The notes under the pieces: model-generated | Database searches by the model: none | What the model was told of the DNA's origin: nothing | Seen by the model: only the letters and a program-made list of their open reading frames with translations | In this document: positions 45,489 through 49,796 of the stretch, piece after piece | Position numbering within the stretch: the stretch's first letter is position 1 | Layout: the number at the start of each line of letters is the position of its first letter | Position numbers and translations under genes: made by a program | Assembly (NCBI GenBank): GCA_044229975.1 | Contig: JBGARZ010000007.1 | Coordinates: 64,001-128,000 of the forward strand | Source: Polyangiales bacterium | Lineage (GTDB): Bacteria > Myxococcota_A > Polyangia > Polyangiales > Ga0077539 | Direction: 5' to 3' | Length of the DNA: 64,000 nucleotides

Positions 45489-48400
45489 ATGCCCAAGACG
45501 CGCAACCCCGTTCGCCCCATAGGCCGCGAGCCAACTCGCCCGAGTATCTTGTTCGTCGACAACGACGTGCAAGATCTTCAGCAGATTCACGGTCGCGTAG
45601 TTTTGGACGGGGGGGGCGACCTCATGGGGCTCACCGTCCGAGCCATCGCGAGCACTCGTCAAGTCCAAGGTGGGCGCAGCACCCTCACACGTGAGTCAAG
45701 CGTATCCGACGATGGAGCATTCGAAGTACTTCTTCCCTCTGCGACCGAGATAGAGGTCGATGTCACTTTTCAAGTCCGCTCCGCGGATGGCACCCTGCTG
45801 TACGAAGCGAGACTTCCGGTCCCAATACGGGAGTCGCTGCTCGAACTGCGTGTGATCGGCAGTTCGGTCTCTCCTGCCGACGTCGAGGCTTCGCCACCAA
45901 GGGCTGATCGTCTTCATGGGCGCGTGATAGACGGGTCGAGCGGTCAACCCGTACCCCGCCGCGGCGTAGTCATCTGGGTCCAGATCAGTGCGGGCGCGGA
46001 CTTCCTTCCGATTCTAGCGCTGCAGTCCGATGCGCGTGGAGCATTCTTCGCTAGTCGCCCGTTGGAACCGTTCATCGCAGCACATGCCACGGTCGCGCGA
46101 TACGATGAATCGGTGCCTCTGCGGTTGGATACAAGTGGACGTCTCCCCTCGCAAGTACTGATCGTCATCGACGATAAAGTCTCCACAGAAGAGGCCGATG
46201 ACTGCGCGTGTGCTGCACCGCCTACAACCCTCCCATCGGAAGAAGACTTCACCGCAGCCCCCGACAGCTTTGTCCAAGACCTCGGGCCCGGTTGCGTATC
46301 GTTCACGCGACCTCACCGGAGTCTGCATGAGAAGCGGTATACGCACATTGTCCGAACTACCGAGCCGAGGATCAAAGGCCTATCGCTGAACGGTCCGGTG
46401 GTTCCGCTGGATCCAGGATTCTTGCCCGGTTCAACCCCGGTCCAGACTGCTCCTCGCTCACTTCATGTCGAAACTGCACGCAGCCTCGCGGCCCACCGCT
46501 TTGAAATGACCGAAGAAGTTCTCGCCACGACGTTGGCTCAAGAACACACTGCGCTCGCCGAGGATAGCATTCTACCGCACCTAAAGCGCTCGGACGATCG
46601 CGATCGCCTCGACGCGGACAACCCGATTGATTGGGACAACTCTCCTACTTTTTATCAGGCCACGACTATCGCTCATGGCCACCTATTAGAGTTCAAACAG
46701 GCTTGGAAGAGCGCTGGGTACTCGATGGGGTCGCTGCTCTACAGCCTGCCTCTTGCCCCCGGACAGAAGCGGCAGATTGCAATTCTCGAGTGGAGTCGAA
46801 GCGAGCAGGCGCGGCGCACCGAAGACGTCGCGGTAGAAGAACACCTCGATACGACGTTGGATCGTGACCGCAACGTCCATGAGACAACAAAGGCCTTGTT
46901 GCGGGAGGAGATCACTGGTGAGTCTTCTAGCAAGACGTCTAGTTTCGGTGGAGGTACGGGCGCTGCAGGTGCCTTTGAGATACCCAACTATCCGATCACG
47001 GTTGGTGCCACGGTCGGGGTGAGTGGCGGTGTGGGTCGGTCAAGTTCGAAATCCCACCAGGAGTCATCACGGTCGCTTTCTGCATCTGCCTCCCAGCACC
47101 TGCGTGACCACACTTCTCAGGCGGCGAACGCTGTTCGTAGCCAACGCAGCACTGTTGTTCAAGCGCTCGACCAGTCCGAACATGTCGAAGCCCGGACAGA
47201 GGTCGTCGCGAACTACAACCACTGTCATTCTCTCACTATGGAGTACTTTGAGGTCCTCCGACATCTTGAGGTGTCACACGAGTTGGTCGACGTTCGTGAG
47301 TGCCTGTTCGTTCCGCTTCTGATGACTAGGTTCGACGCGGCAAAGATCATGCGTTGGATGGTTCCGCTCCGGCGCGTCCTACTCAACCCGAGGCTGGCGG
47401 GAGCGTTCGACGCCGTTGATCGCCTTCAGTCCGGCGCCTACGTCGGCCTCCCGAGTCACTACGAAGACCTAGCGGTTACGTCCATCGTGGGAACACTTCG
47501 AACTCGAACTTCCATCGAGCGTCCGCGCGACGTTGATCGTGTATTTGATCACAATGCGTGGAGTCCTCTCAACTCAATCCTGCCGAACAGTCCGGCCGCG
47601 CTCTTCGAACGTTACCTGTCCGGTGCTTCTAATCGGGATGAAGTCTTTGAGCAGCATGTCGCGCCTCTGCTTCTCGGAATGCTTCCTCGGCAGCTCGTTG
47701 GACGGATCAATCTTCGCAACGGAAGTACCTTGGAAGGGAATCGATGTGATGTGCAAGTGCGCTCCATTGGTGCTGGTGTCACGGGTGCTGGCTGGGGGGT
47801 AGAGATTGAACTCAAGCCCCAAACGCCACTCCGTCTGGGCGAGTTGGACGAAGTCGAGGTTGGGCTGAATCACGCTCTTCGCTCGCTCGTCCGTTCGCAT
47901 GTAGACGAGTTCAGTTTTCGATATCGCAGCGAACTCGGCTGGCGCCCGCTTCGGGCGACGTTGCGCCGCGCCTCGCTCGGGGTGGGGATGTTCACATCGA
48001 GCTTCGCCGAAGCGATCAGTTTCATGCTGGGCTCCGAAGACAAGGGGCGCATCGATGGAGCCGATCGGAGGATGGCTCGACAACTTGCAGACCATCTAGA
48101 CGCCAACATTGAGTATTATCACCGAGCGATCTGGCGGCAGATGGACCCAGCACGGCGTTACATGTTGCTTGACGGCTTCGAGGCGCCGCACGCCAATGGC
48201 CGCAGTGTCGCATCGGTTGTGGAGAATCGGATTGTTGACATTGTCGGCAACTGCCTGGTGATGCCGGTAATCGACGGTCTTCGCCTCGATCCGACCGTGC
48301 CGAGCGACGCGGCGGGAGAACCAATTGACCTGCTAAACCTCTACACCTGCGAGCCCACGCCTCCACTTTGGATTTCCCTGCCAACTCCGGGAGTCTATGC

Positions 48401-49796
48401 CGAGGCTGTGATGGGAGCCTGCAACAGTTGTGAGATGAAGGACGACCGCCGCTTCTGGCGTTGGGAGGAGTCGCCCGTTCCGGATTCTCCCACTGCGATC
48501 GATGCCGTGTCGCTCGACAGTCGCCGAGCAGAGCCCGGAGCCATGCAGCCGTCGGCGATCGCGCCGCCTATTGTGAACATCCAGAACGTCCCCGCGGCGC
48601 CCGACCCGGTCGGCGTCAGCGCGGCCCTGGGAACGTTGTCCCAATTGGGAGGTTTCCGGGATGCGACGGGTCTGAACCAGAACCAAATCAATGCAGCGCA
48701 GGCTCTTGGTGGGGCGCTCGACAGCGCGGAGACCTACGCTCAGATGGCGACCGACTTGGTCAAGGCCAAACTCGGGGCGATCAAAGAGGCGCAGACTCAA
48801 GGCAGTCTGTCCGAGACCGACGCTAACGCAAAAATTGCGCGTACTCTGGACGAGTTCGATGTCAAGTCCCCTCCGGCATCGTCACCACCTGCCACCCTGA
48901 AAGACGTTGCTCAGACGGCGAATGAGACAGGGGCGACGGACATTACTGTCAAGCACTCCGACGGCAGTTCCTATGAGTTGAAGCGCCCTGCTGTTGACAG
49001 GGAACGGCCACCCCAACCCGAATCCGACTCGACTGTTCCCCAGAAACAAGTGCCCGCCGGCACCGGGACGATGGTTTCGATAGAGGTGCAGTTGTATATC
49101 CCATCGCCAGCTGTGGCCATGACCGAGCCGACCACTGGTGTTGAGATGCCTGTGTTGCCTGTCGGCGGCCTTCTTCCTGGTTATTACTACGTGAAGGGAG
49201 ATGGTCATCTGTCATCGCCCGCCACCTGGTCGTCAGTCACGATGGCTCAGGATACGCGGGTGCGATTGAGCTTGAATGCTGTGCTCGGTCAAAGCATCGC
49301 CGGGATGGCGATGGGAACCCACACGATCGGGATGCAGAAGTTCGGGCTATCTGACCTCTACGATGTGTCGGCCATCAGCGTCCCGGCCGGAATGCCGCCT
49401 TGGTGGCGCGACGTGCTCCCAAGCGCCACGCCGCTCCTCACGCGGACACTTACGGCGTCGCAAAGCAATCTTCGCGTGATCACCCTCCCGCTCACGTTGC
49501 CGCCCAACGCAACGGCGGGCGTGAGAATCCGGGTGGAGGTCAACGCGCAAATTCCTACGCTGCGTCTCGCGCCAGCAATCAATGCCGTAGTCTTCATTGA
49601 TGTATTCATGCTGAATCATCAGATGCACGCCATTGTTAGCGGTAGCCACGACAGCTTCCCGAGTTGGCTCGTACGAGTGGATGGGACATTGGTCTATCGG
49701 TTTGATGCTCATGATCCGATCGGACTCATGCCCGATGCTCTGCGCGACAACGAGGAAGATGTGTTCGTCACTCCCTCCGTCGTGCCCCTTCCCTGA
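45489..49796 (+). CDS. Large lower-GC hypothetical protein (1435 aa), candidate beta-pore-forming toxin-like
   Basis: Long ORF with RBS; two N-terminal transthyretin/carboxypeptidase-regulatory-like repeats; Ser/Thr/Gly hairpin; NYNHCH and GACNSCE motifs; DUF3238-like tail (HDSFPS). The CDS is secure, the function is inferred. Confidence 0.85.
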   Translation: MPKTRNPVRPIGREPTRPSILFVDNDVQDLQQIHGRVVLDGGGDLMGLTVRAIASTRQVQGGRSTLTRESSVSDDGAFEVLLPSATEIEVDVTFQVRSADGTLLYEARLPVPIRESLLELRVIGSSVSPADVEASPPRADRLHGRVIDGSSGQPVPRRGVVIWVQISAGADFLPILALQSDARGAFFASRPLEPFIAAHATVARYDESVPLRLDTSGRLPSQVLIVIDDKVSTEEADDCACAAPPTTLPSEEDFTAAPDSFVQDLGPGCVSFTRPHRSLHEKRYTHIVRTTEPRIKGLSLNGPVVPLDPGFLPGSTPVQTAPRSLHVETARSLAAHRFEMTEEVLATTLAQEHTALAEDSILPHLKRSDDRDRLDADNPIDWDNSPTFYQATTIAHGHLLEFKQAWKSAGYSMGSLLYSLPLAPGQKRQIAILEWSRSEQARRTEDVAVEEHLDTTLDRDRNVHETTKALLREEITGESSSKTSSFGGGTGAAGAFEIPNYPITVGATVGVSGGVGRSSSKSHQESSRSLSASASQHLRDHTSQAANAVRSQRSTVVQALDQSEHVEARTEVVANYNHCHSLTMEYFEVLRHLEVSHELVDVRECLFVPLLMTRFDAAKIMRWMVPLRRVLLNPRLAGAFDAVDRLQSGAYVGLPSHYEDLAVTSIVGTLRTRTSIERPRDVDRVFDHNAWSPLNSILPNSPAALFERYLSGASNRDEVFEQHVAPLLLGMLPRQLVGRINLRNGSTLEGNRCDVQVRSIGAGVTGAGWGVEIELKPQTPLRLGELDEVEVGLNHALRSLVRSHVDEFSFRYRSELGWRPLRATLRRASLGVGMFTSSFAEAISFMLGSEDKGRIDGADRRMARQLADHLDANIEYYHRAIWRQMDPARRYMLLDGFEAPHANGRSVASVVENRIVDIVGNCLVMPVIDGLRLDPTVPSDAAGEPIDLLNLYTCEPTPPLWISLPTPGVYAEAVMGACNSCEMKDDRRFWRWEESPVPDSPTAIDAVSLDSRRAEPGAMQPSAIAPPIVNIQNVPAAPDPVGVSAALGTLSQLGGFRDATGLNQNQINAAQALGGALDSAETYAQMATDLVKAKLGAIKEAQTQGSLSETDANAKIARTLDEFDVKSPPASSPPATLKDVAQTANETGATDITVKHSDGSSYELKRPAVDRERPPQPESDSTVPQKQVPAGTGTMVSIEVQLYIPSPAVAMTEPTTGVEMPVLPVGGLLPGYYYVKGDGHLSSPATWSSVTMAQDTRVRLSLNAVLGQSIAGMAMGTHTIGMQKFGLSDLYDVSAISVPAGMPPWWRDVLPSATPLLTRTLTASQSNLRVITLPLTLPPNATAGVRIRVEVNAQIPTLRLAPAINAVVFIDVFMLNHQMHAIVSGSHDSFPSWLVRVDGTLVYRFDAHDPIGLMPDALRDNEEDVFVTPSVVPLP

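Follow-up and report, generated by a model that had tools for sequence, protein, structure and literature searches.

The cell wall normally keeps beta-pore-forming toxins out of bacteria, and an antibacterial toxin of the polymorphic kind normally requires both a machine for its secretion and a gene for immunity. Among the former, anthrax PA (protective antigen) has a stem of ~80 residues and a barrel of ~105 Å. Here, a 64,000-nucleotide stretch of a Polyangiales bacterium genome (assembly GCA_044229975.1, contig JBGARZ010000007.1, positions 64,001 to 128,000 of the forward strand; the window) was analyzed for one gene at 45489..49796, + strand, which, as the first-pass annotation had called it, is an open reading frame (ORF) of 1435 aa with an ATG start. 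Because it joins a long pore-like stem to end-pieces that are interchangeable and often wall-cutting across its family, the protein likely serves as a single-gene means of breaking into other bacteria. We give a probability of roughly 0.55 to its being a beta-pore-forming weapon against other bacteria that is stored in the cytoplasm, released by lysis, docked on the target and assembled into a ring with a hairpin barrel, with a tethered tail clearing the way or acting beyond.

Described at first as an orphan, the protein belongs to a family of 1502 homologs among 7991 scored candidates (query aa 360–1120); a full HMMER scan gave 3326 clusters when grouped at 50% identity, of which 1590 had E of 1e-30 or better. 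Among pattern matches in genome contigs, 287 of 313 encode a relative, and 78 loci were kept, from Actinomycetota, Chloroflexota, Bacteroidota, Pseudomonadota, Myxococcota, Acidobacteriota, Nitrospirota and the archaeon Nitrosopumilus. The family also matched 33 plasmid records (including Haladaptatus, Bacillus, Nostoc and Streptomyces) and a single viral contig; cultured carriers are Streptomyces, Myxococcus, Dechloromonas, Runella, Reinekea and Haladaptatus. The core matched 0 Pfam families, no PDB sequence (phmmer and a 56-sequence profile) and, for 14 members, no NCBIfam or PADLOC entry, and its nearest 30 clusters in the ESM Atlas are all unnamed. In the open literature, subscription papers and supplements being outside the scope, no account of the family, of DUF3238 or of BAS0735 was found; the Additional File of PMC3482391, one such supplement, could list family members. 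The family is real, large and apparently undescribed.

A Ser/Thr-Gly hairpin had been annotated and is present at aa 478–522 (46920-47054), but the stem that contains it is about three times longer than was marked, and the "helical stretch" placed ahead of it is better read, from covariation, as part of this longer hairpin. The antiparallel stem spans aa 425–574 (46761..47210, + strand; 151 residues from Pro424 to Asn575) in the register i+j=1001. Using 309 sequences (Neff 147) and comparing ~90 anti-diagonals, i+j=1001 ranked best in aa 425–450, 451–470 and 471–489 and second best in aa 395–424. The top covarying pairs were 478-523, 407-596, 484-517 and 405-598, and pairs advanced by two along the hairpin (478-523, 480-521, 482-519, 484-517, 486-515). 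Stem length, measured between the residues equivalent to Pro424 and Asn575, equaled 1 mod 4 in 281 of 308 distinct stems, with 141, 145 and 149 dominating, and in 138 of 165 once the modal class was removed. Each step in length moved the turn two residues from each anchor, adding 2+2 residues, and steps of four are the pattern that a hairpin with in/out alternation allows; no p-value was assigned to this count because kin sequences are not independent. Covariation and 4-step lengths together describe a long antiparallel hairpin in one register, as in the beta-pore-forming class. AlphaFold2, run on aa 271–1116 with 56 sequences (pLDDT 72, pTM 0.53), modeled six very long strands, all lying within aa 395–609.

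The predicted membrane-crossing tip (46920..47069, + strand) consists of Ser/Thr flanks at aa 478–485 and 517–527 around a core at aa 486–516. In 56 aligned sequences, the tip core was 41% Gly, 44% hydrophobic and 2% charged, the flanks were 44–47% Ser/Thr, and the highest mean hydropathy in the core of the protein was that of the tip. In the modal class the tip has ~11–12 residues per strand, the length of one bilayer crossing; an uncharged, alternating tip of bilayer length with Ser/Thr-rich flanks is found in the beta-pore-forming class. From ~73 residues per strand at 3.3 Å each, tilted, a barrel length near 200 Å would follow. Residues 527–560 have helical periodicity and are partly helix in the model, as would be anticipated if the soluble form keeps the stem folded away, in the manner of the helix-to-strand switch that sections of PMC9558359 describe for cholesterol-dependent cytolysins (CDCs).

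The distinct tail that had been annotated was also evident, with BLAST coverage by 119 homologs reaching 0 from aa ~1251 and the homolog alignment spanning aa ~30–1165 before it ends. The suggestion that homologs might share a body and swap their C-termini was borne out: the final 170 residues of 321 tails fell into 79 clusters, the largest with 108 members, 95% of which contain HExxH. The closest relative, P0002, has a core 60% identical to that of this protein (P0001) and is its sister in the tree (SH-aLRT 100), yet its tail, peptidoglycan-binding and M74-like, is unrelated, and tails resembling that of this gene sit on the distant members P0241 and P0258–P0260, so tails have been swapped. 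The tree came from a quick search on 80 collected sequences over aa 371–615 only, and its deep branches are weak. A Pfam scan matched 31 of 65 tails (two counted in two classes): 13 were peptidase C70, 11 were peptidoglycan-cutting or -binding (GH25, amidases, M23, muramidase, PG_binding_1, OmpA), 5 were PETase-like, and DUF2272, tyrosinase, Ig-like and zincin each matched once. No nuclease or ADP-ribosyltransferase was found by Pfam among the 65, and LysM, M15 and weak M74 tails occur among further homologous proteins.

The tail of this protein (aa ~1193–1435, 49065..49793, + strand) is, by profile and model, a divergent DUF3238/BAS0735-like all-beta domain. Its profile matched 3C5P with E=3e-6, and its modeled fold is shared with BAS0735, the top match being 3C5P (prob 0.99, E 3.6e-3, TM 0.37–0.44, far above the next; model pLDDT 53). 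Against PF11579 (DUF3238), the query tail gave 0 matches over the curated cut-off, and 3 of 4 aligned tail members matched (best E 1.9e-4). Searched alone, the tail found only itself among longer proteins, and the ESM Atlas gave no usable match for it. A haloarchaeal plasmid carries a member with a DUF2272 tail, which we take to be a wall enzyme; an archaeal carrier of such a tail points to an outside, bacterial target. Excerpts of PMC12352652 describe archaea that use peptidoglycan hydrolases to kill bacteria.

Several loci with unusual tails were recorded. In a Bacillus tropicus plasmid (L092:7389-10706), a member with a Hedgehog N-terminal signaling domain as its tail (PF01085, E 9e-52) adjoins SIR2, integrase and AAA-ATPase/helicase genes. 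In a Polaromonas plasmid (L096:7284-10895), a member whose tail is restriction-endonuclease-like by eye and has no Pfam match lies among TIR, type I restriction-modification (RM), PIN and DUF262 genes; if real, a nuclease tail would need cytoplasmic delivery, favoring translocation. At L098:11-2449, an unrelated modular protein combines DUF3238-like, C70 peptidase and unknown domains and is followed by a gene for 341 aa (2498-3523) without a Pfam match, which looks like another unnamed polymorphic locus.

Neighboring genes were called with our own heuristic. Two tandem family copies were present in 13 of 78 loci, and a lipase-like tail was paired with a C70 tail in at least three of these (L025, L052, L076); no other gene recurred beside the family in the 78 loci. 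In the tandem pairs L025, L052, L056, L063, L064, L066, L069 and L076, the first copy has a long tail (PETase-like in five scanned) and the second a short C70 tail, an arrangement that recurs in Acidobacteriota, Actinomycetota and Gammaproteobacteria and makes a two-component hetero-oligomer possible. No small downstream immunity gene recurred in the 78 loci, the next gene here encoding a 1144-aa NHL-repeat protein. A close same-strand gene was present in 27 of 62 loci, the annotated ones being mostly housekeeping, and tail-like genes lie downstream at L071, L074, L057, L058 and L037, some of which may be split genes. Defense genes were not evidently enriched among neighbors (133 of 464 scanned, those from the first loci); the sole clear defense system was an AbiE pair, and the rest were generic kinase, hydrolase, ABC and helicase domains.

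As annotated, the protein has no signal-peptide-like stretch (by a hydropathy proxy, no 12-residue segment within the first 40 aa exceeds 0.42), and among 190 family N-termini none was a convincing signal peptide, the two above the hydropathy threshold both being helix-hairpin-helix (HhH) starts. No known trafficking route was found by signal peptide or NCBIfam, the genome-wide search covering only markers of type VI secretion systems (T6SS) and of extracellular contractile injection systems (eCIS). The eCIS marker PF14065 exceeded the cut-off in 9 of 44 carrier genomes, as did the T6SS sheath PF05943 in 9 of 44, and neither was found in 27 of 44, many of these being incomplete metagenome-assembled genomes in which a Bacteroidota-type T6SS may also be missed.

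If the protein is a weapon against other bacteria, soluble copies would wait in the cytoplasm, doing no harm there, and would probably be released by lysis. They would dock on the target envelope via a predicted PLAT-like domain and assemble into a putative ring, each chain driving one hairpin into a predicted barrel whose greasy glycine tip would cross the membrane. The flexibly tethered tail would then cut a path through wall or lipid or act past the breached layer; cutting of the wall may precede the pore. In many relatives this role would fall to a wall- or lipid-cutting enzyme, and the DUF3238-like tail here would take the same role. We infer that the targets are bacteria. The missing immunity genes would be explained, since envelope-acting tails are harmless in the producer's cytoplasm. 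Tentatively, the protein may be a one-gene envelope-breaching machine, with a ~200 Å barrel bridging wall or periplasm, an unmatched head fold and its own swappable enzyme, needing no secretion system or immunity gene. It is possible, to a like degree, that the enzyme of such a machine lies either in the same chain or in the lipase and peptidase pair of tandem genes, and that the machine is common to bacteria and archaea. If true, a family of >3,000 clusters in which one chain unites a predicted pore stem of extra length with swappable enzymes that cut the wall would be a third way beside the two classes named at the outset; the pore families would gain one whose head fold has no match, and DUF3238 would have its first context. 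Because cultured carriers exist, the hypothesis is directly testable.

The beta-pore-forming-like core proposed in the first-pass annotation gained independent support from the covariation register, the 4-step lengths, the uncharged tip and the PLAT-like domain; its putative use in predation or competition is retained as part of our preferred reading, with self-lysis considered beside it. Several observations weigh against a beta-pore-forming weapon. No export route is evident. The stem of this protein, at 151, is one of 27 stems, out of 308, that break the 4-step rule, and model confidence falls below pLDDT 50 over much of aa 444–561, with coil or helix modeled at aa 451–469 and 536–547. Gly autocorrelation in the tip is highest at lag 4 (0.43, vs 0.37 at lag 2), so glycine spacing is not cleanly of period 2 and a glycine-zipper helix pair fits too. 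No fold-level homology to the heads of known pore toxins was found with Foldseek (TM 0.03–0.06, rmsd 28–50 Å). Of the 65 tails, 34 are without a Pfam match, and the tail here has no known activity, so "wall-cutting" describes a trend of the family and is not demonstrated in this gene. Eukaryotes could just as well be the targets of the tyrosinase, C70 and lipase-like tails.

Four other explanations were weighed. The protein could stay inside as a self-lysis or suicide module, triggered for example by DNA via HhH, that pores its own membrane so that the tail reaches its own wall, much as if a holin and an endolysin were fused in a single chain, or in the manner of a bacterial gasdermin. The lack of a convincing signal peptide among the 190 N-termini fits this, no immunity gene was found and none would be needed, a ComEA-type HhH occurs in 100 of 327 members, and on three plasmids the family gene has TIR/RM, SIR2/AAA-helicase or toxin-antitoxin genes in its vicinity. 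We consider it unlikely, however, given the 0 of 14 PADLOC matches, the AbiE pair as the only clear defense system among the scanned neighbors, the single viral contig, archaeal carriers, which lack peptidoglycan, and the absence of HhH from this copy. Quite unlikely is a non-lytic tube or filament, in which hairpins would build a stalk or needle anchored by the greasy tip and enzymes would be displayed on the surface or matrix for feeding: covariation gives a long hairpin and not a membrane pore, many of the hydrolase tails could serve nutrition and no toxin-family homology was found, but the family has no signal peptide or sorting signal, its horizontal transfer, patchy and recent, and its rapid exchange of tails are what conflict systems typically show, and its Ser/Thr-flanked uncharged tip is one bilayer crossing long.

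Glycine-zipper helix pairs are known from Tse4/TelE/Tde1-type effectors, and a helix pair at the tip could likewise anchor or translocate the tail without a beta-barrel. That the covarying pairs step by two along one anti-diagonal is a beta pattern, and residues are added 2+2 on either side of the turn; with the strands of the AlphaFold2 model at aa 470–495 and 506–531 (low confidence), this makes a zipper very improbable despite the 41% Gly tip, the lag-4 autocorrelation, the 4-residue length steps and the helical periodicity at aa 527–560. The least probable of the explanations weighed has the protein delivered by a contractile injection system (eCIS/PVC or T6SS), as its cargo or its spike, so that an export route would be at hand. 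A T6SS sheath gene is present in its own genome, and the tail repertoire and missing immunity genes resemble those of PVC-delivered toxins (as treated in parts of PMC3482391), whereas no injection-system gene recurs beside the family in the 78 loci and the 27 carrier genomes, many incomplete, had neither marker.

Other motifs that had been singled out lie where they were placed: HGRV at aa 34 and 143, LYSLPLAP... at aa 417–435, VANYNHCH... at aa 573–589, LPTPG...CNSCE at aa 964–982 and RFWRWEESP at aa 988–996. The body begins with two small family-conserved beta-sandwich repeats (45570..46184, + strand; aa ~28–128 and ~135–232), predicted from sequence to be carboxypeptidase-regulatory/transthyretin-like. 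The transthyretin-like repeats annotated there were weakly supported, by a profile-profile match between them (P=0.005, HGRV..GxF register matched) and by CarboxypepD_reg, under the cut-off at E=0.02. In the 100 relatives with HhH, this domain lies ahead of the repeats. Conserved Cys motifs DCxC and GCV follow with a strand at aa 278–289 (46194..46388, + strand); the strand is predicted to be part of the head, and the motifs are a possible metal or latch site. The Cys/His motifs DCxC, GCV, HGH, NHCH and CNSC (window 46194-46388, 47211-47240, 48420-48434) are conserved and could form a metal site or latch governing assembly. The head strand leading into the stem (aa 371–424, 46599..46760, + strand), with invariant HGH, GYSxG and YSLPLAP, pairs with aa ~580–609, and the NxNHCH turn with the return head strand (aa 575–612, 47211..47324, + strand) was placed by conservation, model and covariation.

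An inserted beta-sandwich (aa ~656–847, 47454..48029, + strand) is predicted to be PLAT/LH2-like by structure match: all 50 of the 50 VIA rows listed and the top 8 of another search were PLAT-domain proteins sharing this fold, with no PLAT sequence match and 5–10% identity. The VIA lists, filled by the PLAT domain and a long helix, held no pore toxin for head or stem. PLAT/LH2 domains are found in the alpha-toxin C-domain, lipases and lipoxygenases, and the modeled insert is likely a membrane-docking module. A conserved helical/strand block (aa 859–1000, 48063..48488, + strand; CNSCE, FWRWEESP) completes the head by conservation and model, and a family-conserved Pro-rich linker with long helices (aa ~1001–1165, 48489..48983, + strand) tethers the tail. 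A Streptomyces relative has a tectonin lectin domain after the stem and no enzyme tail by eye, so the body can stand alone. Among viral structures, only the uncharacterized Yasminevirus protein A0A5K0U6Q4 in BFVD matched the core model with E < 0.001 (E 1.7e-4, TM 0.11, rmsd 41); this may be a giant-virus long-hairpin protein or a chance match.

The gene has its own ribosome-binding-site-like sequence, as annotated (GGAGG, 45480..45484, + strand, 4 nt 5′ of the ATG). A promoter of its own, also annotated, was not recovered: a consensus scan found 0 sigma-70-like sites in 44500-50100 vs 1.0 expected from shuffles, and a TTGACG hexamer at 45443-45448 was seen by eye only. The gene is likely a recent horizontal arrival, since it is a single copy with low GC (0.594, GC3 0.646, vs 0.73–0.75 and 0.77–0.96 in three adjoining genes) in a ~10 Mb genome of 71% GC and turned up in 0 of the 30 genomes searched from the same family. 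Around it, island-boundary repeats and terminators did not exceed chance, and the insertion site could not be fixed, the flanks being too little syntenic in 8 congeners. It is flanked by a chemotaxis/histidine-kinase cluster and the 1144-aa NHL-repeat gene, with no small partner gene seen. By inspection, the chemosensory cluster (window 36035-44567) contains CheR-, MCP-, CheA- and CheB-like genes and a hybrid histidine kinase, and its final 3 kb has an 82% match in only 1 of 8 congeners. At 44564-45073, where GC drops from host-like to ~60%, two short same-strand ORFs (86 and 81 aa) may be the remains of a lipoprotein gene where the low-GC insert begins to border on host DNA. The 1144-aa protein (49944-53378) has a lipoprotein-like N-terminus, Cys-rich repeats, an Asp/Gly/Thr tandem repeat and NHL/teneurin-like propellers, and its gene is probably outside the insert because its GC is host-like.

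Compared with known systems, the protein resembles anthrax PA and binary-B components in that each chain has a single long hairpin, flanked by Ser/Thr and uncharged at its tip. It differs in having no Binary_toxB sequence match, no signal peptide and no A component next door, its cargo being fused in the same chain, and in a stem about twice that of PA. With aerolysin, epsilon, lysenin and Bin/Toxin_10 it shares a single Ser/Thr-rich amphipathic hairpin and a swappable lipid- or glycan-binding domain; unlike the aerolysin/ETX-MTX2/lysenin group, it has no Pfam or PDB sequence match to them, carries large enzyme tails and has a stem of ~150 residues, vs roughly 60 in the aerolysin-type superfamily. 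Pore-state beta-toxins were the best Foldseek rows (aerolysin E 5.7e-6, NetF, CytK, lysenin, epsilon, PA), matches that come from the long hairpin alone: head and stem were folded and searched together, the aerolysin row had TM 0.04 and rmsd 29 Å, and PA ranked 37 (E 2.7e-3, TM 0.05; Ib 2.8e-3). A specific kinship with PA/binary-B or aerolysin, the types named in the first-pass annotation, is not supported, there being no sequence match and only these fold matches. Kinship with Bin/Toxin_10, suggested by a resemblance in motif order, was rejected (hhalign probability 0.0–0.3% for six segments, local and global; the PF05431 set had 19 rows, one out of frame).

MACPF/CDC proteins likewise have stem segments with helical periodicity that would unfurl to strands and a separate beta-sandwich docking domain, and differ in having two hairpins per chain (sections of PMC9558359), vs one uncharged Gly/hydrophobic hairpin here, with no Pfam or sequence match. 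Polymorphic toxins share the constant body at the N-terminus with a variable enzyme at the C-terminus, the broad and patchy distribution and the occasional downstream tail-like genes; here no adjacent immunity gene, known trafficking domain or secretion locus was found, the 65 scanned tails are envelope-acting and not nucleases, and the constant body looks like a membrane-breaching device. PVC-type polymorphic toxins, too, are often without immunity genes, according to parts of Zhang et al., 2012 (PMC3482391). Outside the aerolysin/ETX, Bin, PA/binary-B and MACPF/CDC families by sequence, the protein is, on this comparison, best described as a hybrid, in its workings, of beta-pore-forming and polymorphic toxins.

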